Of a stretch of DNA of 64,000 nt, positions 36,836-54,933 are shown one piece after another. The DNA comes from Candidatus Poseidoniaceae archaeon (GTDB lineage: Archaea; Thermoplasmatota; Poseidoniia; Poseidoniales; Poseidoniaceae), in assembly GCA_965662895.1 (NCBI GenBank), contig CBFIJH010000005.1:57928-121927 (forward strand). The letters are read 5' to 3'. The notes under the pieces are model-generated. The model did not search any database. It was not told where the DNA came from and worked only from the letters and a program-made list of their open reading frames with translations. The position numbers and the translations under genes are program-made. The number at the start of each line of letters is the position of its first letter. Position 1 is the stretch's first letter.

Positions 36836-37069
36836 TCAGTATTCCACCGCAATTAGCGTTCGCGTGTCCCGAATTCCTTCAATGGTTCTGAACTCTTTCA
36901 TGAGCAGTGCGGTGAGATTTTTTGCTGTGTTGCTGCTCACATGAGCGAGAAGATCGTACTCTCCATACAAGGCGTGGACTTCTTTGACATCAGCATGGGA
37001 GGTTATAGCGAGATAGACATCACGCTCATGGGACGGTTCGGTCTTGACAAGGATGAATGCTTCTGGCAC
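36836..37069 (-). CDS. Stand-alone Lrp/AsnC C-terminal (RAM) domain protein, tandem paralog
   Basis: 77 aa. ILVKTEPSHERDVYLAI...GEYDLLAHVSSNT...IEGIRDTRTLIAVEY. Confidence 0.7.
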   Translation of the reverse strand: MPEAFILVKTEPSHERDVYLAITSHADVKEVHALYGEYDLLAHVSSNTAKNLTALLMKEFRTIEGIRDTRTLIAVEY

Positions 37070-37167
37070 AATGTCCGCTTGAGCAGAAGGGTCTTATCGC
37101 TTTGGTTTCGTTTTTCGGTGAACATGCAAAGGGTGCTTTCAAATGGTATCGCTTTGGATTATACAAT

Positions 37168-40100: not shown

Positions 40101-41877
40101 TGAAGTAGGGAATTCAGATACCTACACCGTTGAAGTCAAGTTGTACAATGAGATGCCAACCGCTGCTTTCACGCTCGAACGTAATGGAACAGCGAGTGAG
40201 GATGTGATTTTCTTCAATGGAAGCAGTTCAGCAGACCCAGAAAACAATCCAATTTCGTTTGAATGGTGGTCCAATGTGGATGGAACGCTCATGGTTGGTC
40301 AAGGTATTGAGAACATTTCTTGGTACGGACATCTCTCTCGTGGTGTTCATCAAATTGAGTTGCGAATCACCGACGATCGTATGGATCATGGAGGTCAAAT
40401 GTCGGTTGTCTCTCAATTGATTACCGTCGACAATTCTGCACCACGAGCTGTCATTGAAGAATTGGCTCTGTTCGATGACCTTGACTCGTCCGTTTTGATT
40501 CCGTTCAGTGCAAATGGTAGTGGCGATTTCGATTCAGGATGTTTTACATTCCCAAGTGAGGGGACCTGGCACTGTGCAGAGAACGAGCCTGCAGCTGGCT
40601 CCGAATTCCTGCAAATCGATTGGTCGAGCGACATCGATGGACGATTGACACCAGAAGATGAGGATTGGTTGACCTTTGAAACGCGTCTCTCCGCAGGCAC
40701 GCACCAGATTACACTCACGCTCAGCGATGGCATCAATCCCAACGTTTCCGTTTCGACAACACTTGAGGTTGCTGAATCAGCCCCTGTCTTGGTGTTGGAT
40801 TCTCCGGTAAATGGTAGCCAATTCGCCTCGAGTGATTTGATTGTTATCGATGCACGAAACAGCGTTGATTACGATGAGGATGACTTTACACTCACCTTGC
40901 GAAGTTACGAGGATTCATCTTCGACGTATCTCCCCATTCTGTCCGGTGTTTCAACATCGGTTGTTCATGAAATTCAACTCGATGCTGGATTAAGAGATTT
41001 GCAAATCGAATTACTGGATGCGACTGGAAAATCTCGCGTTGAATCGCTCGAACTACTCATTCTCCCCAGCGACCCAGAGGCCGTGATTGTATCGCCTGCT
41101 AATCTTGAATCGTTCGATCCAGGAGTAACCATCGTCTTCGAAGGTTCCTCCAGTGATGCTGATCAAGATCTCATTGTTCGAGAATGGCGATTGCACCAAC
41201 CAGGAGTCCAAACAAGCATTCTGAGTACCCAGTCAACATTCTCCCAGGTCTTTGTTCCCGGTTCGCATCATGTTTCGTTGTACGTTCAAGATGCCCGTGG
41301 AGCTTCCTCGGAGCAGCACATCAACTTCACAGTGCGATCAAGCCTTCCTGAATTGGTTCAGACCAGTTTGGAACTGTCACAGACCGAGTTCATCTCAGAC
41401 GAGCAAGTTACACTCGATGTAGCGGTCCAGCTGATTGATGCGGATGGAACAACCAACGATGTGCGCGCCGATATCGTCCACAACATTCAGACGTGGACAT
41501 TCAATCTCAGCGATGATGATGGCGATGGAATTTGGACTGGCTCGATTGAATTCCAGCCTTCGGGTGCAGGACAACCAAGTTTCAAGGTCATTGCAACCGA
41601 TGGAGAAGGCGATTCTGCCAGTGTTGATGTTCTTTACACGCCGCTGAAAGTTGTTGACGCCGAGGGTGAAGGATTTATGTCAACGGGTGTCCTTCTCGGT
41701 GCAGTTTCGATTGTTGTTCTCGTGGCCCTGCTTATCACGCTCCAGCGTCGAAGGCAAGCAGCAGAGGAAATGAAAATCATTGATTCATGGGGCGTCTTTG
41801 GTGATGGAGCAGTCGAGGATGATGCATCTGAACAAGAAGTGAATGAGGACGAAAAGTTGGATTGGGAGAACGTCTGA
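37168..41877 (+). CDS. Giant type-I surface protein: parallel beta-helix (PbH1) domain plus ~6 PKD/Ig-like domains and a C-terminal TM anchor
   Basis: Start at MERQKRFFALGLLLLLLMMSMAPMVQS (signal peptide). PbH1-like repeats NPILNNVTIFNPDRVGIDMFGSS, GIGLSVGDGSTPIVQGAYF. PKD-like modules marked by LTWTSSLDGV, FEWWSNVDGT, IDWSSDIDGR. TM helix GVLLGAVSIVVLVALLI followed by an acidic tail. Confidence 0.75.
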   Translation: MERQKRFFALGLLLLLLMMSMAPMVQSFHDSQGKPTAVSGRATTTWSGTVTLTSDYFVNVQDELLITSCTSVVLSPGIRIYIDGRLTVQGTPTCPIVLSSSSSTGDHEGIQFNSSSFGRGSTVNHLHIEDAIYGITMYGSNPILNNVTIFNPDRVGIDMFGSSSPVIRDLHVEQAGRSVGFQNDWRYGIGLSVGDGSTPIVQGAYFTDHQLRGLNLWGASGGIYRDIVMDNISGSVLGEVAGVWVEDSVPLFENLTIDKSDTGIIVRHIDDSGYTRGVFRDVDISNSMFRGVYLDKNNHTNYTNYETADFTNLTVRGTGSSGATSPGIALAAIDINATGAWLENVLVDDASSVGIRMFFVDSTTTLRNVTIRDAGEVGQGAHSAGLSIQTSYFAAHVEDLEISGSPGPGVHSSSGGSLQGSDWNLHNNSEHGLFIDSATVVVDGISTMKNGYSGVHVFDSRYVSISNLTSVNDGDLGSDAMEQAGLSYQKSNDLETNSGDVVCRNCHVESSQGHGVYVRDSVDLWLHNLSISDIDPTLPAMYVDNGGLTLGTQGGRINLFNSQIEHESTTQHALYIQQAAGHIDGLSLIGNHSGIYWDANHNGNFPSTLSNTEFVGSECLKLVNHPDLGGYGNTIGSDCEGRIWVENSDVNFSNLVDVSGTHILDLDAASTMHLHQPSNIDLTIANIPSGASIDVAWDVTVWVVNNLSNGIPNAYANVSFTQFEPSVSEFTNDIGVVQLIDFIGQRWTNSGASAMNDVAVECGYDSESNTTTVSLDGDKVMYCVLELDNQPPFLNWTSPMDGDVFPSQGQVLFDAQESWDLDDDPLTLTWTSSLDGVISSTQSTAPFTVNDGVSGITLSDGIHDITLDVCDNAGHCVSETRTIELTNLAPELNVSFEPGLTQWNELIMPQTGTVTINTTGTFDPEGDDFACTISFGGYNRQGTGWGNQYVCPELLTYTFDHYSDDPPASFFLNVVAFDEVGNSDTYTVEVKLYNEMPTAAFTLERNGTASEDVIFFNGSSSADPENNPISFEWWSNVDGTLMVGQGIENISWYGHLSRGVHQIELRITDDRMDHGGQMSVVSQLITVDNSAPRAVIEELALFDDLDSSVLIPFSANGSGDFDSGCFTFPSEGTWHCAENEPAAGSEFLQIDWSSDIDGRLTPEDEDWLTFETRLSAGTHQITLTLSDGINPNVSVSTTLEVAESAPVLVLDSPVNGSQFASSDLIVIDARNSVDYDEDDFTLTLRSYEDSSSTYLPILSGVSTSVVHEIQLDAGLRDLQIELLDATGKSRVESLELLILPSDPEAVIVSPANLESFDPGVTIVFEGSSSDADQDLIVREWRLHQPGVQTSILSTQSTFSQVFVPGSHHVSLYVQDARGASSEQHINFTVRSSLPELVQTSLELSQTEFISDEQVTLDVAVQLIDADGTTNDVRADIVHNIQTWTFNLSDDDGDGIWTGSIEFQPSGAGQPSFKVIATDGEGDSASVDVLYTPLKVVDAEGEGFMSTGVLLGAVSIVVLVALLITLQRRRQAAEEMKIIDSWGVFGDGAVEDDASEQEVNEDEKLDWENV

Positions 41878-41900
41878 GGCCACTTTATTTTGTAGGCCAT

Positions 41901-41916
41901 AGTATAATATATAACA
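41901..41916 (+). promoter_or_regulatory. TATA-like element (tagtataatatataac) about -25 from the ATG at 41934
   Basis: AT-rich box in the 56-bp gap between two large genes, with the right spacing for a leaderless archaeal promoter. Confidence 0.35.
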
Positions 41917-41933
41917 GAACTCCAGTGCGACGC

Positions 41934-44195
41934 ATGAGAAAAGCACTCACGCTCATCCTCGTTGGACTAATGATAGGAACAACCTTGCCAGCAAGCGTTG
42001 CAGCCGAAGAGACAGAACCGATTGCATTTGGTATTGAATACAACTATTCGAATCTTAACACAGATATTGCTTCGATGATTGGTGTCGATCTTCAGGAAGT
42101 CTTCCAGGAAGTGATGGCTGCTGGTGATGATGTGGGAATCGATTTGCTCATTGGTAGTGTAACATCCGGTTCGACAACCATCGTTTTTGAACAGTATGAC
42201 GGCCCGATGAAGACGCTTACAGTCGATGGAACGCAGACAGACTTTTCCACAAAAGTAACCGAACTTACCGTGCGTCACGGACTCCTTGATGACTTTGCAG
42301 TTCACTCGGAGTGGAGCGATTCCTACGGAGGAATCGACCTGACAATTGGTTATGATTCCGAGCAACTCTTCAATGCAGATGTCGTCTACACAGAGTACTT
42401 TGATTCTGAAATGGGTCTTCATGGAATGGATATGGAGATGGACGTTGAAGCGGAAATTGAATACGCCTTTGGAATAAACGGAGAACTCTCTGGCGATGGC
42501 GAAACCATGCCGTTCGACATCGAACTCAAACTTGGTACATCTTTTGAAATCAACAACGGTTTGCTCGAAGTCCGCATGGATGAAGCATCTCCTTTGTACA
42601 CAGAGATGGTAAACCTGCAACCGGGTCAAACATTGACGTGGAATTGTGGAACAGACGAAAGATATGTTGAATCCGAATTCGACGATGTTGATGTTGGGGA
42701 TTTATGCTCTGAGCGCAACATCCACTACGAGACAGAGACATCAGTTCTCCTCGAATTGACCGGAATTCCAACGGAAGAATTTGGTCTTCCGGAAGGAGAT
42801 TTTGATTTTACTGTTTCAGACACTGTTACCGACATGTATGATGGTGATGTTGAACTTTTCTTCATGGGTGGAGGAATGGAATTGCTTGATGAACCTACAC
42901 AAATGATTACCATTGACGATGGAAGCATGATCGAAGTTCACCAAGCCTATGCTTCACCTACTCCACTTGCGTTCCCTGCAATGTGGGCAATGATGTGGGC
43001 AAACTCTGTTGTTGGTAGCGGAGATTATCCTGGTATTGTCGATGCGTTGTTGGGCAATGAGGACATTGACGACGCATTTGGCGGATGGTTTGATGAGATG
43101 CTTGAATCTGCAGAAGAAGATGATGATGACTACTTCGTCTGTGCGAACCTCAATGAAATTCCTCGTCAATATGTCGAAGATGGATTCGATGATTGCGGCG
43201 ACAACTCAGATGAAGAATTCGTGTGCGATGATGGAGGTGTTATCCCCGGAGGCTGGGTCAATGATGGATGGGAGGATTGTTCAAATGGTGAGGATGAAAC
43301 CAATGTTCAACAAGAATTTGTATATGTTAATGTTTTCATGAACGGAGCAAGCGAATCAGAAATGAACTTCGATTACGAAGTGCAGGGCATGGAATATGAT
43401 GAGAATTACGAGATTTCTTGGACAGTCACGGATGATGAAGGAACCACATCCGATGCAGGTTCCGCTGCTATTACAGACGGTTCCTACAGTGCATACGAAA
43501 GTGCTAATGCAGAAATCAATGGGTTTGGTGAATACTGCGTTGATATTGTCGTTACTCAAATGAGCGATGATGAAATTGTTGGAACACAGCAGGAATGTGA
43601 ATCGGTCTCGCAGGATATCGAGCCGAGCGATCGTTTGATGACCATTGCTGAGGCACTCGCAGAATCGACCCTAGACAACACACTCGAGTCATTCGGTCAG
43701 AATCTTGAGAACCGTTTGTCGAACTTTGAGGACGATTTCGATGTCGCTTACGAAGATGGTATGGCTTATGCGCTGTATGATGCTAACGACGATCGCTTTG
43801 TTGGTTTCCAGCTGGTCGCATCACCTGGTGGGACACAGTGGTACACGCTCATTGGACCTGAGAGTTCTGCGTACGGTACGCCACAACGCGGCCTGAGCAT
43901 CACATACTTCACTGGAGTCGATGCAACACAAGAAGCGGCCGAGATTGAGGACCAAACGGATTTGTCAGACCTTGTTGATGTGACACAGCACAACACCGAT
44001 GAGGTTGAGGCAGTCAACACGGGTGTCGACCCTGCTACACTCCCTGACAACACAAACGATGACGTTGATAATACGAGTGAAGCAACAGAAGATGATGTAT
44101 CGGATCTCCTTCCGTTCCTCTCGCCGATTACAACTCTTGCAATGATTGCGCTTGCAGGAATGTTTGTATCAATCCGTTACAAGGATGAAGAATGA
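41934..44195 (+). CDS. Large acidic type-I surface protein with two LDL-receptor-class-A-like Ca-cage modules
   Basis: Signal peptide MRKALTLILVGLMIGTTLPASVAA. FVCANLNEIPRQYVEDGFDDCGDNSDEE and FVCDDGGVIPGGWVNDGWEDCSNGEDE match the D-G-x-x-D-C-x-D-x-S-D-E end of LDLa. C-terminal helix TTLAMIALAGMFVSI. Confidence 0.65.
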   Translation: MRKALTLILVGLMIGTTLPASVAAEETEPIAFGIEYNYSNLNTDIASMIGVDLQEVFQEVMAAGDDVGIDLLIGSVTSGSTTIVFEQYDGPMKTLTVDGTQTDFSTKVTELTVRHGLLDDFAVHSEWSDSYGGIDLTIGYDSEQLFNADVVYTEYFDSEMGLHGMDMEMDVEAEIEYAFGINGELSGDGETMPFDIELKLGTSFEINNGLLEVRMDEASPLYTEMVNLQPGQTLTWNCGTDERYVESEFDDVDVGDLCSERNIHYETETSVLLELTGIPTEEFGLPEGDFDFTVSDTVTDMYDGDVELFFMGGGMELLDEPTQMITIDDGSMIEVHQAYASPTPLAFPAMWAMMWANSVVGSGDYPGIVDALLGNEDIDDAFGGWFDEMLESAEEDDDDYFVCANLNEIPRQYVEDGFDDCGDNSDEEFVCDDGGVIPGGWVNDGWEDCSNGEDETNVQQEFVYVNVFMNGASESEMNFDYEVQGMEYDENYEISWTVTDDEGTTSDAGSAAITDGSYSAYESANAEINGFGEYCVDIVVTQMSDDEIVGTQQECESVSQDIEPSDRLMTIAEALAESTLDNTLESFGQNLENRLSNFEDDFDVAYEDGMAYALYDANDDRFVGFQLVASPGGTQWYTLIGPESSAYGTPQRGLSITYFTGVDATQEAAEIEDQTDLSDLVDVTQHNTDEVEAVNTGVDPATLPDNTNDDVDNTSEATEDDVSDLLPFLSPITTLAMIALAGMFVSIRYKDEE

Positions 44196-45130
44196 GCGAA
44201 GGCGAAGGGTTTCAACCCGTTGCTAGATGGCGAATTGTCGCCAGTCTTCTTCTGATCGCTCAACTTGTGGTTTTACTCGCTTTCAAATCGGCCCTCGAGG
44301 AAGAATCCTGGTTTGTTGGAAGCGTCCAAGCAACGGTCGAAGAAGGGCCACTGCAACTTGAGGGCGTATCCGTCAACTTGTCCATCGATATGCAGAATGA
44401 GCAAGACGACCTTAGCATCGAGTTTTTTGGTCCACTTCGATTGAGTCATTGGCAAAATGAACGCGATGACCGTGCAGCACTATCCGAACAAGAAGCTGAA
44501 GCGTATGATGAAAATCTGAACGAAACGTTTGACGCTCCATCACCAGATTCAATCAAATCAACAACGTTCGCACTCATCCATGTTGGAATCGGATTTTCGG
44601 TTTTTTTGATGATGGTTCTTTGCTTCGATTTAAGGAAACAAGCAAGTCAGTCATGGATTACATATTCTCGTCGCTTCGTTTCGTTTGTATCCTTTGTGAA
44701 TACATTGGCGATTCTGCTGCTCATTCTTCTGGTTCTACCTGGCGGTTGGTTAGCATCGGTTGCAGGGAATCCTCAACAATTTAGCAACAGTGATGAAAAT
44801 GATGCATTTCTTGCCCATGCTGATTTCTCGCAAGAATTCAGCATTGGGCTGGATGGTTTTTCCTTGGAATTTGAAGCGAGTGGATACGATATCGGTATGG
44901 TTCGTCCTGCAAATCGAAGTGCAGTTGAAGCCCAACCCCCACTTCCTGATACGCCTGATGCAGAATCCTTCATCTTGATTTCAGGTGAAATGCGTGCTGA
45001 TACGCCTTCTTATGTTACTGAAATGATGTATTACTGTTTCATTTTATGGGTAGTTTTACCGCTTGCTCTCCTCATTCAACAACGAACAGCAATCGATGCA
45101 CGACTTGCACCGATCAATTTGAATGGTTGA
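44192..45130 (+). CDS. Hypothetical membrane protein co-transcribed with the preceding surface protein
   Basis: ATGA overlap at 44192-44195. N-terminal helix, an acidic ectodomain-like stretch, and 3 further helices. Confidence 0.55.
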   Translation: MSEGEGFQPVARWRIVASLLLIAQLVVLLAFKSALEEESWFVGSVQATVEEGPLQLEGVSVNLSIDMQNEQDDLSIEFFGPLRLSHWQNERDDRAALSEQEAEAYDENLNETFDAPSPDSIKSTTFALIHVGIGFSVFLMMVLCFDLRKQASQSWITYSRRFVSFVSFVNTLAILLLILLVLPGGWLASVAGNPQQFSNSDENDAFLAHADFSQEFSIGLDGFSLEFEASGYDIGMVRPANRSAVEAQPPLPDTPDAESFILISGEMRADTPSYVTEMMYYCFILWVVLPLALLIQQRTAIDARLAPINLNG

Positions 45131-45901
45131 TCACTGTTCTGGTAACGTACCGTTCAAACTGTCAGGATTGTCCTCAAGTGGACCCCATTCTGTCTTGGTT
45201 CGATGGAGGCCAAATCGCTTTGCATAGAGGAATCTAAGGTTCTTCCAGCCATCACCCCACGTGTGGATTTCAGCATCTCCAACGCGTTCTCGGTATGGGA
45301 CGGAAATTTCGATGGCTTTCTTACGACCAAGATGCTTGCGTGCAAGGATCTTGATCTCTTCTGAAAGTGGCATTCCATCGTTGGTTGGGCGCATCTTTGG
45401 ATTCTCAAAAATCGACTTGCGGAACACCCACATCCCCGATTGCGAATCCTTAATTCCATAACCGAAGAGGAGTCGAGCATTGAATGAGAGAGCCCAATTT
45501 CCAAATCCGTGGAGACCAGACATGGATCCGTCTTCTGCCATGCTCAGGCGATCACACGTGATGAAATCGAGGTCATCATCCAAAAGTCGCTTGACCAATT
45601 CAGGAATCAATTCTGCAGGATAGGTACAGTCTGCATCCATTGTGACAATGATGTCGTTCGATGCAACAACGAAACCCGTACGGTATGCCCGGCCGTAACC
45701 CTTCCGTGGTTCAAGGTGAACGCGAACATCTTTTTCAAGGGCGATTTCTCGAGTACGATCGGTCGATGAACCATCGACAATCATGATTTCGAGGGATTCG
45801 CACCATCCGCGCGGAATTGCATCAACGGTCGCACCAAGTGCTTCCTCTTCATTTCGAGTGGGAAGAAGAACCGTCACAGATACTGGTAGTACCTCGTCCA
45901 T
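45131..45901 (-). CDS. GT2-family glycosyltransferase (dolichyl-phosphate hexose synthase-like) with a C-terminal membrane helix
   Basis: VLLPTRNEEEAL, MIVDGSSTDRT, MDADCTYPAE (DxD). Start at MDEVLPVSV. Confidence 0.75.
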   Translation of the reverse strand: MDEVLPVSVTVLLPTRNEEEALGATVDAIPRGWCESLEIMIVDGSSTDRTREIALEKDVRVHLEPRKGYGRAYRTGFVVASNDIIVTMDADCTYPAELIPELVKRLLDDDLDFITCDRLSMAEDGSMSGLHGFGNWALSFNARLLFGYGIKDSQSGMWVFRKSIFENPKMRPTNDGMPLSEEIKILARKHLGRKKAIEISVPYRERVGDAEIHTWGDGWKNLRFLYAKRFGLHRTKTEWGPLEDNPDSLNGTLPEQ

Positions 45902-45954
45902 GTTGTGACGATAGGCAATGAGCGTTTCAATGCATTGCCTCAACGGTCAAACGA

Positions 45955-46947
45955 TTACGACCATCGAGCACGTAGGCGACGGAGTGAAAGTTTCACAGCA
46001 AGACGAATCTTTCTCCATTTTGACAAGGAAGGACGCTTGCTAAACACGTCGCCTGAGCGGCGCACGATCTCGTGGAAAATAGCATCATAGGCTTCACACA
46101 TCAGTTGTGGTTGCAATTGGGATTTTGAATCAAGATATTCAAACAAATGCTGTGCTGATTCTTGGTGTCGTCGAACGATTTCGATGTATTCTTGAACAAA
46201 AGACTTCCACCGATGGTTGGTTCCAAATTCAGTATTCCCGAGCTCTGAAATATCGATATTGTATTCGCCTAATGCATTGATTGGAAGGTAAATTCGACCG
46301 CTTCGATAATCTTCAGAAACGTCACGAAGGATGTTGATGAGTTGCAATTGGATGCCCATATCGATGGCGTGAATTCTCCCTCCGGCATCCTCACATCCAT
46401 AAATTTCGATGAGAACCAAACCTACTGCAGAAGCCACCTTGTAACAGTATGCACGGACCTCGTCCCAAGTTTTGTGACGAACTTCGAACAGATCGTCTTC
46501 CATTCCTTCGATAATGGTTTCAAAATCAGAAAGTCGAACAGGGAAATGCTTGAACACTTCGTTGATGGCGATGAAAATGGCTTCATCTTGCGTTGCTGAT
46601 TCATCACCTGCGAACAATCGTGTGAGTCGCTCCTTGGCATCAACAAGGGCCATCAATCGGTATCGGTGCTCCTCAGGAGGGTTGTTCATTGCCGTTTGGT
46701 GGATGCTCTGGAGAAGTCCGTCTCGCTCATCCACGAGTTTGTTGAGGGCTTCGGATTCTCGAACAACTGGTCGAGAGTCTCCATCAGCAATATCATCGAG
46801 GTAACGGCACAGTGCGTAGACCGCATGAACTGCACGACGTTTCTTGAAGGGCAGTGCTGAGAAACTAGCAAAAAATGTGGATGACGCACGACGACAAATT
46901 TCTTCACATTCAAGAAAAGCCTCTTCAATGGAAGTTGTTTTGTTCAT
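45955..46947 (-). CDS. crtB: Phytoene/squalene synthase family (phytoene synthase)
   Basis: Asp-rich motifs YALCRYLDDIADG and ILRDVSEDYRSGRIYLP. YCYKVASAVG. Confidence 0.8.
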   Translation of the reverse strand: MNKTTSIEEAFLECEEICRRASSTFFASFSALPFKKRRAVHAVYALCRYLDDIADGDSRPVVRESEALNKLVDERDGLLQSIHQTAMNNPPEEHRYRLMALVDAKERLTRLFAGDESATQDEAIFIAINEVFKHFPVRLSDFETIIEGMEDDLFEVRHKTWDEVRAYCYKVASAVGLVLIEIYGCEDAGGRIHAIDMGIQLQLINILRDVSEDYRSGRIYLPINALGEYNIDISELGNTEFGTNHRWKSFVQEYIEIVRRHQESAQHLFEYLDSKSQLQPQLMCEAYDAIFHEIVRRSGDVFSKRPSLSKWRKIRLAVKLSLRRLRARWS

Positions 46948-46969
46948 TTTTTCACCTCAATTCTATTGT

Positions 46970-47425
46970 TTATGAATGCGTGTTGTTTTCCTTGTTCATC
47001 TGCATTGTAATGAAATGGATGGCGAGTCCTACTGGCATGAGCATAACGCCGAACAAAATTGCCACTTGCGCAGCAGTTTTGTTGATTTCTGTTTCAACAC
47101 TTCGCTTCCAAATCCATCGCGTGACGATGATGTCACCAATCACAAAGTGCGTCCATGCAAGAACAGCACCATCGTCTGTGCCAAGGACTTCAGCAAGGCC
47201 CGAAACGAAACCGCTCAGGGTACCGTCCCCGATCATATCGCTGAGAGCACCGAGATTCATTGCAAGAACGATCAGATAAGCAATCAACGGTCCAAGGACA
47301 AACCATGGTCCATCCATCCATTTTTTCGTTCGTTCAGCATATGGTTGAAGGAGCATAAGCATCCAGAACGGACCAACCCACATCGATGCTGCGAAGAAGG
47401 CGACCAGAAGCATTGTTTCAACCAT
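46970..47425 (-). CDS. DUF4281/ABA4-like 4-TM membrane protein
   Basis: 151 aa. FAASMWVGPFWMLMLLQPYAERTKKWM resembles the DUF4281 opening. Family call is from memory. Sits between crtB and crtI. Confidence 0.45.
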   Translation of the reverse strand: MVETMLLVAFFAASMWVGPFWMLMLLQPYAERTKKWMDGPWFVLGPLIAYLIVLAMNLGALSDMIGDGTLSGFVSGLAEVLGTDDGAVLAWTHFVIGDIIVTRWIWKRSVETEINKTAAQVAILFGVMLMPVGLAIHFITMQMNKENNTHS

Positions 47426-47988
47426 TAAATCACCTTCTCATATGCTTGTTCGATTTCGTCAATCGAGTTCTCGGTCGGATAATAGGTGTCACTTTCCCAC
47501 TGGATGACGCCGTTTTGGTCGATGAGGAACAACGCAGGTGTTCCAGGAAGACCATAGTATTCAAAAATGGATTGACTCAAATCGGCTTGATCTTCGATTC
47601 GTTGGATTGAATCATCGTCTGTTGGCAAAACAATCGGCCATGGAGTGTAGTGGTCGCTTTCCGTGAAACCAAATTCTTCAGCGACGTCCTCTTTGGTTTC
47701 AAATCGGAGGTACCGTTCAACAGAAACGATTTGCAAAGGTGGCTCCTGATTCATCCAATCGTTGTGATGTTCTCGCAAATCATCGGTCCAATCTTTGCAG
47801 CCAGTACATCCTACTCCGATGAAGAGCACGAGGACGGGCCCCTCGCTCAAGTTTTCTTTCATCGAATACATTGGTCCACCGTCTTCCTCCCGGTCGAGGG
47901 TTTCGACAGTAAAGACACGTCCGTCCTCAGGGGTCGGTTCAATGCAGCCTGCCAGGAGCAAAATGAGCACAAGGGCAACGAAACGCAC
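47425..47988 (-). CDS. Thioredoxin-fold lipoprotein (TlpA/ResA-like thiol-disulfide oxidoreductase)
   Basis: MRFVALVLILLLAGC (lipobox) and a CxxC GCTGC after the strand VLVLFIG. Stop overlaps the DUF4281 start by 1 nt. Confidence 0.65.
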   Translation of the reverse strand: MRFVALVLILLLAGCIEPTPEDGRVFTVETLDREEDGGPMYSMKENLSEGPVLVLFIGVGCTGCKDWTDDLREHHNDWMNQEPPLQIVSVERYLRFETKEDVAEEFGFTESDHYTPWPIVLPTDDDSIQRIEDQADLSQSIFEYYGLPGTPALFLIDQNGVIQWESDTYYPTENSIDEIEQAYEKVI

Positions 47989-47997
47989 GTTGCTCCC

Positions 47998-49605
47998 TCA
48001 AGCGTTGGTCGGCGTTCCTGCTTCTTTCGCAGTTGTCACCTTTCGTTGAGCTTTCCGTCCACGAGGCGAGCGGCGAATGCCTTCGAACCAAGTATCGACG
48101 CCGTTCCAATCCGGGTCAATTCCGAGGTCATCCAACACGAGTTTGCTGCTGATTCGAGCGCTCTCAAAGATGGTCGGTAGTCCACTGCCGGGATGTGTAC
48201 CTCCACCGACAATGTAGAGGTTGTTTGCTTCTTCAAACCGGTTGTGCGGGCGTCGCCAGAGCATTTGTTTGAGGTCGTGTGTGAGGTTAAACACTGCACC
48301 GCGATAGATGTCAGATGCACCCCAGTCATCGGGTGTGATTACGGTCTCTGAAACGATGTGATCGCCAATATCATCGTACCCAAGTTTTGCCAGTTGTTTG
48401 ACAACAATTTCTCTGAAATCTGCTTTGATGTCATCCCAAACGATGCTCTCGTGCTGGTTTGGTACAGGTACGAGAACGTAAATCGTCGAGTGTCCCTCAG
48501 GAGCGAGCGAGTCATCGGTTATTGACGCATTTTGAACGTAGACGGATGGGTCGTCCCATGTCAAACGATGATTGGTGATATCTTTGAGATTCTTTTCGTA
48601 CTCTGAGGATGCATAGATTTGATGATGTGGTAAATCGTATTGCTTGTCAACACCCAAGTAGAGCATAAAGGTTGAACAAGAATATCCTTTCTTTTCCAGT
48701 TTCTTATCGGACCATTTCTTGCGCTTCTCATTGGGGACGAGTGTTGTCATTGCATGAGCAAAATCTGCGTTGACAACCACTCTGTCGGCCATTATTTCAG
48801 CGCCGTCAATCCGGACGCCTTTGACGGTTTTACCTTCATAGATGAGGGACTCAACCGGAGTGCTGAGTCGAATATTGACGCCCATTTCTTCCGCAATTTC
48901 AGCCATTCGAGCAGTGATGCTTCCTAGGCCTCCTTTGGCGTGGAAAATGCCGTGCTCGTACTCAAGGAAGGCGAGAATCGTAAACAGCGAAGGGGCATGG
49001 AACGGGCTCATTCCCAGGTACTTGGTTTGGAACGACATTGCGAGTCGAATGCGTTCATCATCGAAATGCTTACTGAGATCTCCAGCAACGCTGGCCCAAG
49101 GCTTGAGGACAGAAGCCACCCGCATGGCTCGTCTCGAAAGAATGTCCAACGGACTTCGCCATGGAGTTTGCAAACACTTCTTGCTGAGGTCAAGCTTTCT
49201 TCGGTTTTGTTTGACGTACTTTTTGAATCCTTCAGCGTTTTTGTCACCGGCAAGCTCTCGAATACGTTCTGTCATTTCTTCGAGGTTGCTTGTCGCATCG
49301 ATGTGGCCTCCAGCGCCAAAGACAAGCCTGTACATCGGGTCCAATGGCATCAAACCGAGTTCCTTGTGTGCGTCTCGACCAATTGCTTGGAAGATCTCTT
49401 CGATAACTTCTGGATAGTGGAAGAAGGTTGGTCCACGGTCGAACGTGTATCCGTCCTTTGTGTACAATCTGGTGCGTCCACCGACGGCATCGGCTTTCTC
49501 GAGTACGGTCACGTTGACACCTGAATGGGCGAGGAGAAGTGCAGAAGCAAGACCGCCCGGTCCTGACCCTACGATGATTGCGGTTGGTTTATTCTGAGTA
49601 CTCAT
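47998..49605 (-). CDS. crtI: Phytoene desaturase family FAD-dependent oxidoreductase (CrtI/CrtD-like)
   Basis: N-terminal dinucleotide fold IIVGSGPGGLASALLLAHSGVNVTVLEKADAVGGR. ~500-aa CrtI-like core plus a basic C-terminal extension. Confidence 0.8.
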   Translation of the reverse strand: MSTQNKPTAIIVGSGPGGLASALLLAHSGVNVTVLEKADAVGGRTRLYTKDGYTFDRGPTFFHYPEVIEEIFQAIGRDAHKELGLMPLDPMYRLVFGAGGHIDATSNLEEMTERIRELAGDKNAEGFKKYVKQNRRKLDLSKKCLQTPWRSPLDILSRRAMRVASVLKPWASVAGDLSKHFDDERIRLAMSFQTKYLGMSPFHAPSLFTILAFLEYEHGIFHAKGGLGSITARMAEIAEEMGVNIRLSTPVESLIYEGKTVKGVRIDGAEIMADRVVVNADFAHAMTTLVPNEKRKKWSDKKLEKKGYSCSTFMLYLGVDKQYDLPHHQIYASSEYEKNLKDITNHRLTWDDPSVYVQNASITDDSLAPEGHSTIYVLVPVPNQHESIVWDDIKADFREIVVKQLAKLGYDDIGDHIVSETVITPDDWGASDIYRGAVFNLTHDLKQMLWRRPHNRFEEANNLYIVGGGTHPGSGLPTIFESARISSKLVLDDLGIDPDWNGVDTWFEGIRRSPRGRKAQRKVTTAKEAGTPTNA

Positions 49606-49650: not shown

Positions 49651-50940
49651 CTAGTCGGCTGGCTGTATCTCGCCTTCCCAGAACGTTTTCGTGATGGTTT
49701 TTTGCGTCCTGGAATCTTTTGAATACGGTAGTTCGACGATCGAAGCAAATTCATCGAGATAAGGCCCCATTGATGAGATAAGATCGATGTCTGGATGCCC
49801 ACGAAGAACCATTCCATCCATGTACATCAACGAACGGATGATTGGGAAGGCTTCCTCACCAAAGCGACAGCCAGCCAGGACAGCGATGCGCACCGTTTTC
49901 ATCATCTGCTGTGTGAGACTAACCTCGCTGACGGATTTGCCGACAAATCCATCATAGATTTCGTGCATTTCACGCATGTATCGCGCCTTCGCCTCACCAG
50001 TTGGAGGTGTGTCTGCCATGGTCAACATTGCTTCAAACGCACCCTCAAGTTCTCCCTTCGCAAGATAGTAGAAGAAGCCGAACAGCGCTGAACGTACACT
50101 TTCTGGAGCGTGAGAAATTGCACCAGTATCAATAAAGGTGAATTGCCCGTTTTCATCGACCATCGCATTTCCTGGGTGAAGGTCGCCGTGGAATGTCCCG
50201 ATACCAAACATGAAAGCACCGTGGATGCGAAACAACTGCAACAAGTCGTCCCAGGATAGATTTCCTTTCGAAAGTCTAGATTCGAGAGTAGGGGCTTTGA
50301 TGTGTTCCATGACCAAAACGTGTTGATTTGAGAGTTCTGGCCAAACTTTTGGAAAGTTCAACAAGGGCATGGGGAATTGGTGTTCGACCTCTTTGGCTTT
50401 CGATTGAAGCAACTCAGCACCTTGAATTTCGTTTCGCAAGTCAAGCTCTCGAAGTGTGTAATCCTCAACGTGCTGAAGCAAACCGACTGGATTGCCCACT
50501 TTTCGAAGTCGAGGATTCAAAAACAGTCCAATTCTAAGCCATCGGCGCATTCGAGCGACATCTTTGCGGAACGATTTCTCAAAATCCGCCTTGATGATCT
50601 TCACCACCACTTGACTTCCGTCTTTGAGGACACCACGGTGTACCTGTCCGATGCTTGCTGCTGCAAAGGGTTCTTCTTCGAAGGACTCAAAGGCATCAAG
50701 GAATCCGGCAGGAGCTCGACTTCGAATCAGCGACATCGAATCCTCCTTCGGAATCGAATTTGCTCTCTGATACAGCGATTGAAGTTGTCTGCACTTTTCT
50801 TCAGACAGTAGATCGGGACGGAGTGCGAAGATTTGAGTGAGTTTAACAGCAAGCAACCCCATCTTCTGTATTTTATCGAGGTCGGCAGGGCCGTCCTTCG
50901 TAATCATGCGAATAAAACGAACGAATGTCAGGAGGCGCAT
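49651..50940 (-). CDS. ABC1/UbiB-family atypical protein kinase
   Basis: FEEEPFAAASIGQVHRG, VVVKI (Lys), HGDLHPGNAMVD (catalytic loop), FIDTG. Confidence 0.8.
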   Translation of the reverse strand: MRLLTFVRFIRMITKDGPADLDKIQKMGLLAVKLTQIFALRPDLLSEEKCRQLQSLYQRANSIPKEDSMSLIRSRAPAGFLDAFESFEEEPFAAASIGQVHRGVLKDGSQVVVKIIKADFEKSFRKDVARMRRWLRIGLFLNPRLRKVGNPVGLLQHVEDYTLRELDLRNEIQGAELLQSKAKEVEHQFPMPLLNFPKVWPELSNQHVLVMEHIKAPTLESRLSKGNLSWDDLLQLFRIHGAFMFGIGTFHGDLHPGNAMVDENGQFTFIDTGAISHAPESVRSALFGFFYYLAKGELEGAFEAMLTMADTPPTGEAKARYMREMHEIYDGFVGKSVSEVSLTQQMMKTVRIAVLAGCRFGEEAFPIIRSLMYMDGMVLRGHPDIDLISSMGPYLDEFASIVELPYSKDSRTQKTITKTFWEGEIQPAD

Positions 50941-50965
50941 AGTAAAAAAATCTCCTTTTCATTTA

Positions 50966-51787
50966 TCAATCGGCGTTTTTTTTCAGGAGTGCTTTGATAG
51001 GATTTGCAAAGAGAGCAGGTGTTGTTTTCACCCATTCATCAAATCCTTCACGTTGTTGCAAATCAACTTCCGACATCTTGACACCGCTTACATAACGAAG
51101 GAGAAGTGTGAGGATAAGGGGACCAATGAGTACTGGAAGAGCGTCAAAACCCGAAACGATGACAGCAAAACCGCCAATCGACCACCACAAGATTGCTTCT
51201 CCCAAATGGTTCGGGTGACGAGTGACTGAGAACATTCCATCCGTTTTGAGGTGACCTGGGCCGTGCATAGCACGATATTTTTTCAACTCCATGTCTGCTT
51301 TGTGTTCCAAGGATAAGCCAAGCAGGAAACCGAAAAGACAAGCCAAGGACAATGCAGTAGAAGTCACGGTCCACTCAATGGATTCCGATTGTTCTGGAAT
51401 GAGGGCGAAAATTGGAAGCGCAACCACAAGGAGGAAAACCGCTTGAAGCATGAATACCTGAAGGAAACTGATCCACCACCAATTGTTCCCAGCAACCTCG
51501 CGCATGCGAACATAGCGTGGATCTTCCCCACGATTCTTTGTTCGATAATGCAATACAACTGCAAGACGCAGTCCCCACAGGGTGACACATGCGAGGCAGA
51601 GTAGTGCAGCAAGATTCGTGGCATCGGTGAAGAGAAATCGAGTCCAAGCGATGAGGACAAAACCCATTCCCCATAAGACGTCCATAACCGTAACATTGCC
51701 GGTTGATAGCGTCTTAATCCATGCAATTGTGACGTATGCGAGGACAACAAGAACGGTCAGCAAATTCAATCCAATGTCCACCATCAT
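50966..51787 (-). CDS. DUF1295 / steroid-5-alpha-reductase-like membrane protein
   Basis: ~8 helices. C-terminal SVTRHPNHLGEAILWW is typical of the ICMT/DUF1295 superfamily. Start overlaps the trmB-like stop. Confidence 0.7.
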   Translation of the reverse strand: MMVDIGLNLLTVLVVLAYVTIAWIKTLSTGNVTVMDVLWGMGFVLIAWTRFLFTDATNLAALLCLACVTLWGLRLAVVLHYRTKNRGEDPRYVRMREVAGNNWWWISFLQVFMLQAVFLLVVALPIFALIPEQSESIEWTVTSTALSLACLFGFLLGLSLEHKADMELKKYRAMHGPGHLKTDGMFSVTRHPNHLGEAILWWSIGGFAVIVSGFDALPVLIGPLILTLLLRYVSGVKMSEVDLQQREGFDEWVKTTPALFANPIKALLKKNAD

Positions 51788-53181
51788 GCAGACGGTTCCG
51801 CTGGTTGTTCTTCATTGTTCATGATGATATGGTAGCGCCAGAGGTCTTCTGGCTCACCGGTTCCATCGTATCTTCGGACGTTGACGTTTCCATCTTTCGG
51901 GAATCGAGTCATCAAGGCTCCTTCGATGATACCATCATCAAGTTCCCACATGGGTAGTACGTCTGGATCTTCGCTTGGAGGATGGTCGAGTCCAACCTGC
52001 ACATGGAAGACCGGATCGATACCGTATTCAAGCCGACCAAGTCCAGCAAATTCCCACCAATCCATCATTTCATCGAGGAATTCGACGTGATTTTCGATTG
52101 AACGGAGTGAGAAAGCCAACTCGTGTCCGACACGATTTCCGACTTGACGCAACATTCGAGCCAAGTCAATACCGAGGATTTTCAAATTTGATAATCTGCC
52201 CTTCGTAAGCTCCTGCCGTGCTTGGTTGACTTCCGTTCCAGCTGCGAGGAAGGCATCTGGGTCGAATGGTGTGTCGTGTTCGGGAAGGTCGTCAACGCCG
52301 AGGGCACCGACTAGGGAATCGAGGAAGGAACCCTCGCCGATTGTCAGTCGAAGTGGGTCATGGATTCTCCCTTTCGAAAATCGGGCTTCTGCGACTTCAA
52401 ACTGTACTGCGTCTTCCCAGATTGTATCGATTAGATTCTCTTGTGCTTTAGCGAAAGGTTCGCTTTCGATGACGAGTGCAGCGTCTTCTTTTCCACGTCC
52501 AACTGGATTTTCTTCGATGTTGAGGAACTGAACAACGTGTGTACAATCCTGGAGGAATCCTTGGGAATCAAGGTCATCTGAATGTTTGATTTCAATTGAA
52601 TCATGAAGTTTCTGGAAGAAACGTGTTGTTCGGCGATCAAGTTGGGCAATGACCTGGACCACAACACCCTTTTCAGCAACTGAATTGATGGTTTCTAGGG
52701 CTTCACTTCTGCAGAGGTGAAGAATACCGTACCGTCCGAGGAGTAGGACGAGCCGTTCTTCAGCATCCTCTGCCATTCGCTCAAGCCTGCGGTAAATGTG
52801 GCTTCGTTCTTTGAGAACTGCGAATCGTGGTTCATCACGCTGGCGGCGGTTCGCCTCGTAGGAAGCATTTGCTTCCGTGATGCCTTTGGAGAGCTCATTG
52901 AATCCTTCTTCGAGGTTATCCAGTTGCCTGCGGCGCATCTCAATAATGTGCTGCAACGCTTCATCAACACGCAAGCTTGAAAACAACATCGGCCGGTCAG
53001 CAGTTGCTGTAACGATACCCATTTCTTGGAGCCTTGAGAGGCTGTTGTACGCATCCAGTCGCGTTGTTTGCAATTCCTTTGCGAGTTCGCTTGCACGCAT
53101 GTTTGGATTGTTGCCAAGCACCATGATTGAGCGTACTTCTCGTTCAGTGAGACCAGCTTCGTTCAGAAGGCTGTCCCACAT
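51784..53181 (-). CDS. TrmB-family transcriptional regulator with a large C-terminal sensor domain
   Basis: Start at MWDSLLNEAGLTEREVRSIMVLGNNPNMRASELAKELQTTRLDAYNSLSRLQEMGIV (TrmB wHTH). ~380-aa C-terminal region. Confidence 0.65.
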   Translation of the reverse strand: MWDSLLNEAGLTEREVRSIMVLGNNPNMRASELAKELQTTRLDAYNSLSRLQEMGIVTATADRPMLFSSLRVDEALQHIIEMRRRQLDNLEEGFNELSKGITEANASYEANRRQRDEPRFAVLKERSHIYRRLERMAEDAEERLVLLLGRYGILHLCRSEALETINSVAEKGVVVQVIAQLDRRTTRFFQKLHDSIEIKHSDDLDSQGFLQDCTHVVQFLNIEENPVGRGKEDAALVIESEPFAKAQENLIDTIWEDAVQFEVAEARFSKGRIHDPLRLTIGEGSFLDSLVGALGVDDLPEHDTPFDPDAFLAAGTEVNQARQELTKGRLSNLKILGIDLARMLRQVGNRVGHELAFSLRSIENHVEFLDEMMDWWEFAGLGRLEYGIDPVFHVQVGLDHPPSEDPDVLPMWELDDGIIEGALMTRFPKDGNVNVRRYDGTGEPEDLWRYHIIMNNEEQPAEPSA

Positions 53182-53711
53182 TAGTCGGATCCCCCAGTGA
53201 CGGATGAGAGGCTCTTGAGGATTCGAGCAACGTGTCGGCGTGGACGGAACAACCAATCGTATACATGGTGGATTCGATTGTCAGGCCCAATCAAGAAACT
53301 GGATTTGGCAGGAAACATTCCGAGATGGACTGGAACCAGGAATTTGTCTGCGACTTCCCTTTCCGGATCGGCAAGAAGTGGAAACGGAAGTCCACCAATT
53401 TCTTTCTTGAACTTGGCATGCGATTCGCTTGTTCCTTCCCCAATTCCAACGACTTTGCATCCTGCTGAGACGAACAAATCGTGTTGTTCCTTGAAGGTGA
53501 GACAGCCTCGCTTGCACGTCGGTGACCCATCCTTCGCATAGAAGAACAAAATTCGCCATGAATCATTCAGCGATTTGCTGTCAAAAACGTTGCCTACGTC
53601 ATCAGTAAGCGTGAATTCAGGTGCGAGTTCTCCAATCAAATCTTTGCTCACTCGCTTCGCCTCATTGTGGGTGAGGCGCTCTGCTGTCAATATGACTTCC
53701 CCCATGTGCAT
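53181..53711 (-). CDS. bcp: Peroxiredoxin, Bcp-type (AhpC/TSA)
   Basis: APEFTLTDDVGNV, FFYAKDGSPTCKRGC (P-x3-T-x2-C peroxidatic Cys). Start at MHMGEV; the track begins upstream at a TTG codon. Stop and the trmB-like start share a TAATG. The start coordinate may be off by 1 nt: the printed sequence and the track frame disagree by one base in this region. Confidence 0.65.
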   Translation of the reverse strand: MHMGEVILTAERLTHNEAKRVSKDLIGELAPEFTLTDDVGNVFDSKSLNDSWRILFFYAKDGSPTCKRGCLTFKEQHDLFVSAGCKVVGIGEGTSESHAKFKKEIGGLPFPLLADPEREVADKFLVPVHLGMFPAKSSFLIGPDNRIHHVYDWLFRPRRHVARILKSLSSVTGGSD

Positions 53712-53716
53712 CACCC

Positions 53717-54328
53717 TCAGATTGGCAGAATGTGACGCATTCGCAACGCTTTTGTTCGCAGATAATTTTTGTTTTCTGAGCAAAATCCTGCTTTGTGAGA
53801 TACACGGTCGACAACCGATATGCCGTGCTGTTCGAGTTGCTCGACCTTGTCCGGGTTGTTGGTCATGAGACGAACGCTGTCATATCCTATATCAGTGAGG
53901 ATGTGGGCTGCGATTGTGTAGTCACGGCCATCGGCGGGTAAATTGAGCGCAAGATTAGCATCGAGTGTGTCAAGCCCACGGTCTTGTAGGTTGTAGGCCT
54001 GCATCTTTGCAAATAGTCCAATGCCGCGACCTTCCTGGCGGAGGTAAAGAACGATGCCACGTCCTTCTTTTTGGATGGTCTTTAATGCACGTTGCAACTG
54101 TGGTCCACAATCGCATCGAAGACTTCCAAGAGCGTCTCCAGTTAGGCATTCTGAGTGGATGCGGACAAGAGGGGGGGTTTGATCGTTCATGTCGCCGTGA
54201 TAGATGGCTGCGTGTTCGGAGCCATCTTTCGGGTCGATGTATGATCGTATGCGGAACTCACCATACTTCGTGGGGAGTTTTGCGTCAGCAGGAACTGCCG
54301 TAAACTTCTGGTTAGGATTTACCTTCAT
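53717..54328 (-). CDS. ribA: GTP cyclohydrolase II
   Basis: RIHSECLTGDALGSLRCDCGPQL (zinc Cys triad), LRQEGRGIGL, HGISVV. Confidence 0.85.
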   Translation of the reverse strand: MKVNPNQKFTAVPADAKLPTKYGEFRIRSYIDPKDGSEHAAIYHGDMNDQTPPLVRIHSECLTGDALGSLRCDCGPQLQRALKTIQKEGRGIVLYLRQEGRGIGLFAKMQAYNLQDRGLDTLDANLALNLPADGRDYTIAAHILTDIGYDSVRLMTNNPDKVEQLEQHGISVVDRVSHKAGFCSENKNYLRTKALRMRHILPI

Positions 54329-54417
54329 GTTTTACTTCAACGACGTTGTAGGTATAAAGGACTGTTTCTGAACAAGCCTGTTTGTGCTAATTTGTTAAAC
54401 GGTCCTTCAAATACCTG

Positions 54418-54933
54418 TTGTGGATTATTCGGATTATGACTGGCGACTTCGATGTAGGCGTGGCTGCTGCGGTCACCAACGATTCCGGCATCCTACTGGT
54501 CAAAGAATCCAAGGGCCCCTACGCCGGGTTCTGGGGCTTGCCAAAAGGATACGTCGAGCCGAACGAATCGATCGAATCAGCCGTACTACGGGAACTCAAA
54601 GAGGAAACGCACCTCGACGGGAAAATCTCAGGATTCCTTGGCTTAAGAACGACCAAGACAAACAAAGGCGTTGGTTTGTTTCTCTGCTACAAAATCGAAC
54701 CAACGAGCACGGAAATCCGACCACAACAGGATGAGATATCCGATGTGAAGTTTTTCAATCTTGAATCCTTTGACCAACTCGAATGGGTTTCTGCAGCAAT
54801 GCGAGGGTTTGCTGAAGTAGCACTCAAAGACACATCGCTCCCCCTTGTCGACCTGAGCCATGAATCAAAGCGCCCGTATCATCTCGTATTCAGCGATGGG
54901 CGTGCAACACTTTTGGATGAGGTGATTCAATGA
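54418..54933 (+). CDS. NUDIX hydrolase
   Basis: Nudix box GLPKGYVEPNESIESAVLRELKEETHL. Confidence 0.7.
   Translation: MWIIRIMTGDFDVGVAAAVTNDSGILLVKESKGPYAGFWGLPKGYVEPNESIESAVLRELKEETHLDGKISGFLGLRTTKTNKGVGLFLCYKIEPTSTEIRPQQDEISDVKFFNLESFDQLEWVSAAMRGFAEVALKDTSLPLVDLSHESKRPYHLVFSDGRATLLDEVIQ

Follow-up and report, generated by a model that had tools for sequence, protein, structure and literature searches.

In the crtEXYIBZ cluster of Pantoea and the crtB/crtI clusters of haloarchaea, a CrtI-type desaturase and a CrtB synthase are encoded on one strand, and in the marine planktonic Asgard (Heimdall) archaeon Candidatus Kariarchaeum pelagium the crtB/crtI operon holds two unassigned genes (PMC12137139). 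Archaea of Marine Group II (MGII) rank with the most abundant archaea of the plankton and rely on proteorhodopsin. How they make pigment and retinal is poorly resolved, and a recognisable blh gene is missing from many of their genomes. In metatranscriptomes, the phytoene desaturase transcripts of Poseidoniales drop in the dark alongside those of ultraviolet-repair genes (PMC9723583). Here we analysed a stretch of 64,000 nucleotides (nt) from contig CBFIJH010000005.1 of a Candidatus Poseidoniaceae archaeon, referred to as the window throughout. At 45131-49605 on its minus strand, five co-directional open reading frames (ORFs) are arranged in the order crtI > thioredoxin (Trx)-like lipoprotein > DUF4281 > crtB > GT2, the last encoding a family 2 glycosyltransferase. 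The crtI-(trx)-DUF4281 module within it is real and has no prior description in the searchable literature: it is part of a carotenoid operon into which two conserved, uncharacterised genes are set. The features of the locus are as follows, with protein lengths in amino acids (aa) and transmembrane abbreviated to TM.

47998-49605, minus strand: crtI, phytoene desaturase family, 535 aa; TIGR02734, PF01593
47425-47988, minus strand: Trx-fold predicted lipoprotein, 187 aa; signal peptide, LLAGC lipobox, C61-T-G-C64, cis-Pro T150-P151
46970-47425, minus strand: DUF4281/ABA4-like integral membrane protein, 151 aa, four TM helices, predicted N-terminus outside
45955-46947, minus strand: crtB, phytoene/squalene synthase family, 330 aa; PF00494
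45131-45943, minus strand: GT2 glycosyltransferase, 270 aa as listed; PF00535 at 88.5 bits; likely start ATG at 45902, giving 256 aa
49628-49644, minus strand: promoter element AAAACGTCGATTTATAA, resembling a TFB recognition element (BRE) and TATA box, 22-38 nt 5' of the crtI ATG
49651-50940, minus strand: ABC1/UbiB-type atypical kinase, PF03109 at 149.4 bits; conserved upstream neighbour of crtI
50963-50979, minus strand: second BRE/TATA-like copy, 5' of the ABC1 kinase gene, one mismatch to the crtI copy

Gene order and the carotenoid core enzymes

All five genes are present in the order, on the strand and at the positions given by the first-pass annotation of this DNA. Its description of them as overlapping is right for one junction: trx and DUF4281 share 1 nt in a stop/start overlap (TAATG), whereas elsewhere the genes are spaced, by 9 nt from crtI to trx, by 22 nt from DUF4281 to crtB, and by 11 nt from crtB to the listed GT2 start, or 53 nt if GT2 begins at the likely true ATG. 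Shine-Dalgarno-like GAGG/GGTGA sites lie 5' of trx, DUF4281 and crtB, the crtB site being GAGGTGA. The arrangement of the five genes is far beyond chance; dozens of species-level genomes and metagenome contigs repeat this order. The nearest relative locus is on a contig of a Poseidoniales metagenome-assembled genome (MAG), with cluster proteins 88-96% identical, and the window belongs to the MGIIa branch of MGII.

The BRE/TATA-like element has four matches in the window at three or fewer mismatches, against a chance expectation of 0.7. It is kept 5' of crtI in relatives, including loci that carry a divergent crtI allele, and because of this conserved position just 5' of crtI we consider that a transcription unit starts there. 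A single type of element (written AAAACGYCGATTKATAA; the crtI copy also AAAACGYCGATTTATAA) heads both crtI and the ABC1 kinase gene, which suggests that these two genes are under common, possibly light-responsive, control.

CrtI scored 485.6 bits against TIGR02734 (cut-off 238.1), which places it in that family, and also matched PF01593. The PF00494 (SQS_PSY) domain was found in CrtB at 192.6 bits, and the protein fell below every equivalog cut-off, including those of HpnD (191.9 against 278.6 bits) and cyanobacterial CrtB (151.6 against 550). Together CrtB and CrtI would make a lycopene-type carotenoid.

We also observed that crtI is dimorphic: closely related Poseidoniaceae genomes carry one of two types in the same syntenic slot. 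Between types A and B, identity is only about 66% over the whole length, against 85-97% for the flanking genes. Within either type it is 88-99%, and each of the two sub-clades contains both types. Type A is found in the window and in loci L011, L018, L034 and L001, type B in L012, L014, L017, L021, L030 and L037 (L numbers denote related loci). This pattern suggests allelic replacement or an old polymorphism, and the two types possibly form different desaturation products.

DUF4281, the thioredoxin-fold lipoprotein and their linkage to crtI

The assignment of the third gene to DUF4281/ABA4-like proteins, made in the first-pass annotation, was upheld by profile search: PF14108 (ABA4-like) matched at 75.7 bits against a gathering cut-off of 27, with residues 9-137 covering profile positions 2-127 of 127. 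A profile of 51 archaeal and bacterial homologs was then compared with Arabidopsis ABA4 (ABA4_ARATH, its sequence confirmed by exact look-up in the protein collection) using hhalign, giving a probability of 97.9 and an E value of 3.7e-13 over 137 columns at 27% identity. The alignment pairs the conserved P-F, E-x-T-K-K, W-x-H, D, R and P-x-G positions, and H93, D98, R103, P19/F20, T33 and P131/G133 are identical in both proteins. Judged by this profile alignment, DUF4281 is a true homolog of plant ABA4. For a role of the family in xanthophyll modification in cyanobacteria, which had also been proposed, no support was found; according to one paper, Synechocystis lacks an ABA4 homolog. Full-text searches returned DUF4281 only in plant and algal papers, and nothing on the function of prokaryotic DUF4281/ABA4-like proteins or on this operon architecture.

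The AlphaFold2 model of DUF4281 is all-helical with long helices (predicted local distance difference test, pLDDT, 87.3). A Kyte-Doolittle scan gave three to four TM segments, which fits a small four-helix membrane protein. Positive-inside analysis put loops 27-40 and 107-118 in the cytoplasm and the acidic 27-residue loop 57-83 outside, and on this predicted topology His93 and Asp98 therefore lie within TM3. W16, F20, T33, W91, H93, G97, T102, R103, W104, W106, P131 and G133 are invariant in the family, and G18, P19 and D98 nearly so. Structure comparison found no likeness to any known enzyme. The family alignment has no conserved cysteine, which rules out a CcdA/DsbD-like channel passing reductant to the Trx protein and also means that DUF4281 is not a substrate of the Trx lipoprotein.

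The product of the second gene has one hydrophobic segment, an N-terminal signal peptide by the Kyte-Doolittle scan, which ends in LLAGC. The lipobox G14-C15 (L-[AS]-G-C) that follows this hydrophobic N-terminus is invariant in all members. Its Pfam matches were all below cut-off (AhpC-TSA 24.2 against 26, Thioredoxin_2 21.1 against 27, Thioredoxin_8 17.9 against 27), and no PDB sequence matched at E values up to 1. The AlphaFold2 model is of low confidence (pLDDT 57); the order of its secondary structure elements fits a thioredoxin fold, and Foldseek with this model returned ResA, CcmG, DsbE and related proteins (best E 4e-5, probability 1.0). An alignment of 20 sequences, in which MGIIa and MGIIb members are 27-35% identical, showed C61-x-G63-C64-x-x-W67, R92-Y93, W117-P118, the cis-Pro T150-P151 and Y169 to be invariant. 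The Trx-fold CxxC lipoprotein described in the first-pass annotation is real, with an invariant C-x-G-C and cis-Pro, and the remark that such a protein has no obvious precedent in a pigment operon holds in the searchable literature. Among 1.84 billion, only 51 cluster representatives match it, about 20 of them over the full length. Its sequence and model point to a small, divergent, lineage-restricted family of ResA/TlpA/CcmG-like proteins.

To place these two genes in context, DUF4281 loci were scanned with one genome per species, which gave 80 loci, 68 of them archaeal; enough upstream sequence was available for 56 archaeal loci. crtI stands directly upstream of DUF4281, in some cases with trx intervening, in 48 of these 56. 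The Trx-like gene lies between the two in 33/56 and the ABC1 kinase gene is present in 45/56. When neighbouring genes were clustered, the crtI-(trx)-DUF4281 core was seen to persist across at least six different flanking arrangements, in which crtB is upstream, downstream, inverted, or more than 10 kb away. In MGIIb the order is crtB-crtI-SDR-trx-DUF4281, SDR being a short-chain dehydrogenase/reductase. A metagenome search starting from the Trx side found crtI no more than 1.2 kb upstream in all 55 informative loci and DUF4281 directly after trx in 42 of 75. The Trx-like gene is therefore a standard feature of Poseidoniales crt loci and no peculiarity of the window, and crtI is the conserved anchor of the module across all related loci.

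Several further observations were made around these loci. In L078 and L079 a MauE/DoxX-like protein and a small Rieske protein follow DUF4281. In two related contigs, a gene of a second archaeal DUF4281 clade has as neighbours the gene for a SOUL heme-binding protein and a cluster for heme biosynthesis, and several MGIIb loci likewise have SOUL genes a few kb away from crt; a family-wide link between DUF4281 and heme was rejected, since the pattern holds in those two closely related contigs only. An apparent IDI2-like neighbour in L007 proved to be a gene of the IMPDH/GMP-reductase family, unrelated to isoprenoids. The archaeal crt cluster also turned up in MAGs labelled Rhodobiaceae (L013) and Salipiger bermudensis (L015); these labels probably reflect binning contamination of bacterial MAGs by Poseidoniales contigs.

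The GT2 gene and its surface-protein neighbour

GT2 has thousands of homologs and is the most conserved protein of the cluster, with 88-97% identity where the Trx protein has 60-91%. Its highest-ranking NCBIfam model was AglJ (TIGR04182, 102.5 bits, cut-off 325), and the haloarchaeal dolichyl-phosphate hexose transferase model NF041391 scored 101.6 bits (cut-off 375) over positions 3-195 of 213. A CruG model exists in NCBIfam (NF045692), so carotenoid GT2 enzymes are known as a class; GT2 reached 34 bits with it, against a cut-off of 600, over N-terminal residues 21-129 only, well short of an equivalog match. The closest solved structures are the Pyrococcus furiosus dolichol-phosphate mannose synthase (5mlz, E 1.1e-11) and then ArnC entries. 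GT2 had been called a membrane protein, yet no stretch reaches a Kyte-Doolittle value of 1.6 over 19 residues and hence no TM segment was found. The TTG start that gives the listed 270 aa was rejected, as this codon is TTA in L025 and database gene calls are 256-258 aa; the ATG at Met15 is favoured.

All close relatives (26 loci) keep GT2 after crtB on one strand. Where DUF4281 is less than 71% identical the link of GT2 to crtB is not seen, and no conserved association of GT2 with crt genes was found beyond that. In L091 and L092 the GT2 orthologs (65-71% identity) have a divergent GT4 gene as neighbour and a giant surface protein as convergent partner, and no crt gene occurs up to 6 kb from GT2; in L093 (77% identity) two opposite-strand genes separate GT2 from crtB. 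The giant protein of L091 and L092 is a beta-helix/PKD protein of about 1550 aa, and the giant proteins of L091-L093 are full-length orthologs (tblastn, 35-53% identity) of the window ORF at 37057-41877, which converges on GT2 here too. Since GT2 orthologs converge on it away from crt genes, GT2 forms a conserved pair with the giant surface protein, and its adjacency to crtB is a lineage-specific juxtaposition. From its scores and closest structures, GT2 is probably a polyprenyl-phosphate hexose synthase-like enzyme that is adjacent to the carotenoid pathway and not part of it.

37057-45130, plus strand: three surface/membrane protein genes (1606, 777 and 312 aa), convergent with GT2

The 1606-aa protein combines beta-helix/PKD regions with a C-terminal anchor, the 777-aa protein is acidic and the 312-aa protein has four TM segments; they are mostly without Pfam matches. 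Conserved beside GT2 across Poseidoniales, the 1606-aa protein is a candidate major surface glycoprotein.

The 53-nt spacer between crtB and GT2 is highly conserved and holds the perfect palindrome CAATGCATTG; no recognisable promoter was seen in it. The spacer with this palindrome (listed at 45944-45996) occurs in all close relatives and partly in L001, and is absent 5' of GT2 in L091-L093. Its function may be that of an operator or of an RNA element.

Two proposed neighbouring units and rival explanations

We favour, with a probability of roughly 55%, a reading of the locus as two functionally separate neighbouring units: a carotenoid unit, crtI-trx-DUF4281-crtB, and GT2 with its surface protein. 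The carotenoid unit would be driven by the BRE/TATA-like promoter and set in a light/oxidative stress island. CrtB would form phytoene, which CrtI would desaturate at the membrane, and DUF4281 may take the CrtI product within the bilayer. There, a buried site of His93, Asp98, Thr102 and Arg103, rich in Trp and Met, could handle the carotenoid, and DUF4281 would act either as a cofactor-free acid-base catalyst (of isomerase, cyclase or hydratase type, on an end group or the polyene) or as an obligatory membrane partner, in parallel to the presumed action of ABA4 on violaxanthin. The Trx lipoprotein would be a ResA/TlpA/CcmG-type thiol:disulfide oxidoreductase, held outside the cytoplasm by a lipid anchor; at the outer face of the membrane it would serve as a redox accessory or for protection, and take no direct part in pigment chemistry. 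GT2 would be a dolichyl-phosphate hexose synthase-like enzyme serving protein glycosylation with the convergent giant surface protein. The data show what the genes are, that DUF4281 is homologous to ABA4, that the linkage is conserved, that the promoter-like element is present and where the affinities of GT2 lie; the biochemical roles of DUF4281 and of the Trx lipoprotein, and the final pigment, are what we infer here.

A number of points weigh against this reading. Plant ABA4 itself is without an established enzymatic activity (PMC8770946), and among prokaryotic DUF4281 proteins none has a demonstrated one. The second archaeal DUF4281 clade (e.g. L005/L006:8001-8465, L058) is unlinked to crt genes, and the two clades are paralogs because one MAG, NAT11, carries both (L067 versus L070). 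The Flavobacteriales homologs are likewise unlinked, none of the eight loci with enough upstream sequence having crt genes within 10 kb. Two metagenome loci (L122:3100-3320 and L123:4495-4715) show a clean deletion of DUF4281 with crtI-trx-crtB intact; about 170 nt of unrelated sequence stand in its place and the last 30 nt or so of the gene remain. In the L142-L173 lineage (for example L144:3359-9522) crtI-trx is followed by a 274-aa membrane protein without a Pfam match, SdhA, SdhB and a MauE/DoxX-like protein, and DUF4281 is missing. Another lineage (L093) has ABC1-crtI-crtB without trx or DUF4281. Because crtI loci without one or both genes exist, neither is indispensable to the pathway: trx and DUF4281 are satellites of crtI, and neither is universally required. 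The linkage could also mirror shared light regulation and not shared chemistry. As for the second unit, GT2 lies under all NCBIfam equivalog cut-offs, and with only 53 nt and no clear promoter between the genes it could be co-transcribed with crtB and have a pigment role in this clade.

The setting of the locus bears on the idea of shared regulation.

50966-56420, mixed strands: light/oxidative stress island; DUF1295, TrmB-like regulator, peroxiredoxin and RibA on the minus strand, NUDIX and photolyase-like genes on the plus strand (Pfam)

The synteny of this island is kept across MGIIa and much of MGIIb, in the order photolyase-like, NUDIX / RibA, peroxiredoxin, TrmB-like regulator, (DUF1295), ABC1 kinase, crt genes. 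The strongest rival, which is doubtful but deserves serious attention, builds on it: the Trx lipoprotein and DUF4281 would be co-regulated stress genes that use the crtI promoter to guard or repair the envelope under photo-oxidative stress and leave the carotenoid untouched. The photolyase, NUDIX, RibA, peroxiredoxin and ABC1 kinase genes around the operon agree with this, as do the natural DUF4281 deletions, the occurrence of trx with crtI in L142-L173 where DUF4281 is lacking, the Flavobacteriales and archaeal paralog DUF4281 genes away from crt genes, and the fact that protein thiols are the usual targets of ResA/TlpA-like proteins. Against it, plant genetics links the DUF4281 family specifically to carotenoid conversion, and adjacency to crtI outlasts rearrangements that split off crtB, photolyase and other stress genes. 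Moreover, the conserved buried polar site of DUF4281 suits a lipid-soluble substrate and offers no Cys as a Trx target.

Turning back to the reading of two separate units, its carotenoid half has consequences beyond these archaea. That a prokaryotic ABA4 homolog is strictly linked to crtI, and stays so through rearrangements, gives a separate line of evidence that DUF4281 proteins as a whole act on carotenoids, and the archaeal operon is a simple heterologous system for ABA4-family activity of a kind that plants do not offer. This matters for plant ABA4 in the synthesis of neoxanthin and of precursors of abscisic acid (ABA). A much bolder version, which we regard as unlikely, is that the crtI-linked DUF4281 proteins are an unrecognised class of intramembrane carotenoid isomerases or cyclases that, in some lineages with help from the Trx lipoprotein and an SDR, supply the cyclic carotenoid/retinal step of Poseidoniales and reveal the activity of ABA4. 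If true, this would answer both the neoxanthin synthase problem and that of proteorhodopsin chromophore supply in Poseidoniales.

Slightly less probable again is that DUF4281, possibly with the Trx lipoprotein and, in MGIIb, with the adjacent SDR, fills a missing step of the retinal pathway, as a novel lycopene cyclase or chromophore route. Small membrane cyclases and hydratases (CrtYc/Yd, CruF) carry out acid-base chemistry on carotenoid end groups, which is a point in its favour, and the MGIIb loci do combine crtB-crtI-SDR-trx-DUF4281. No known cyclase, Blh or rhodopsin family matched among the multi-TM ORFs of the window (Pfam and NCBIfam) or among ORFs near crt genes in the related loci examined, and nothing relevant lay beyond the window ends; this search covers the window and crt neighbourhoods only, which limits its support for a missing step. 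Literature searches for a lycopene cyclase in Poseidoniales returned nothing. Most MGII genomes encode proteorhodopsin yet are without an annotated beta-carotene 15,15'-oxygenase (PMC6336850; PMC7734400), in line with such a gap. DUF4281 is, however, found in MGIIa lineages reported with blh as well as in those without, deletion variants exist, and the protein has no structural likeness to a known enzyme.

It is more improbable still that DUF4281 has no catalytic function and serves the peripheral flavoenzyme CrtI as a membrane dock or as an electron outlet on the quinone side, its neighbours being lineage-specific redox relays. Linkage to crtI and not to crtB would fit, the buried His/Asp/Arg/Trp residues could be taken to resemble quinone sites, the redox-type neighbours vary by lineage (Trx lipoprotein, SDR, MauE/DoxX-like plus Rieske), and one DUF4281 paralog lies near a protoporphyrinogen oxidase of the CrtI family. 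The case is purely inferential, and the plant step that depends on ABA4 involves no net redox change. The MauE/DoxX-like gene of L142-L173 directly follows the succinate dehydrogenase genes and needs no link to crtI, and the paralog is about 2.4 kb from the oxidase with opposite-strand genes between.

The least likely explanation is the one in the first-pass annotation, a five-gene pathway to a glycosylated or otherwise modified carotenoid with GT2 as a CrtQ/CruG-like carotenoid glycosyltransferase: the short same-strand spacing and its conservation in close relatives make the inference of carotenoid glycosides in these archaea tempting but wrong, as the affinity of GT2 to dolichol-phosphate mannose synthases, named there as what would refute it, is largely borne out by scores, structure and context, and no hydroxylase, hydratase or other enzyme making a glycosyl acceptor from lycopene was found in the crt cluster.

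Elsewhere in the window, a YfcH/ThyD-like oxidoreductase lies beside the photolyase and, like it and NUDIX, diverges from the minus-strand genes (56430-57827; TIGR01777, 314 bits over residues 162-457) and has an unexplained N-terminal extension of about 160 aa. At 806-2432 there is a run of small multi-TM ORFs, DUF3817 followed by proteins of 137, 126 and 158 aa without a family, and the 287-aa ORF at 10343-11206, which matches nothing in Pfam or NCBIfam, is predicted to have about six or seven hydrophobic segments.

Comparison with described systems

GT2 resembles PfDPMS, Haloferax AglJ, Dpm1 and ArnC/GtrB in its GT-A domain, in near-full-length model alignment and in a glycosylation-type gene context. 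It differs from PfDPMS and AglJ in being without their C-terminal TM helices; human DPM1 likewise has no TM segment. With cyanobacterial CruG and Staphylococcus aureus CrtQ it shares the GT2 family and, in this clade, adjacency to carotenoid genes, but it has no membrane segments and its crt linkage is lost outside the closest relatives.

The Trx-like protein shares with ResA, CcmG (DsbE) and TlpA a thioredoxin fold, the CxxC at the N-terminus of helix 1, the cis-Pro loop and a predicted extracytoplasmic membrane tether. Unlike them, it carries some 45 extra residues between helix 2 and the cis-Pro loop, its gene is tied to crtI and not to genes for cytochrome c or Cu-centre maturation, and no CcdA/DsbD partner was seen near it.

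Compared with the crt operons of Pantoea and haloarchaea, the locus has two extra genes between crtI and crtB, and the cluster showed no gene for a cyclase, a hydroxylase, an elongase or a CrtX of the GT1 type. Its flanks are also different, with the ABC1 kinase and the photolyase and peroxiredoxin genes.

For DUF4281 the closest described protein is Arabidopsis ABA4 (At1g67080), which it resembles in homology over the whole membrane domain, in four TM helices and in its tie to carotenoid metabolism. The archaeal proteins have no transit peptide. Epoxy-xanthophylls are not known from their host, which excludes violaxanthin and neoxanthin as substrates. Whereas plants have the cytosolic factor NXD1, the archaeal DUF4281 is operon-linked to crtI, often together with the Trx lipoprotein.

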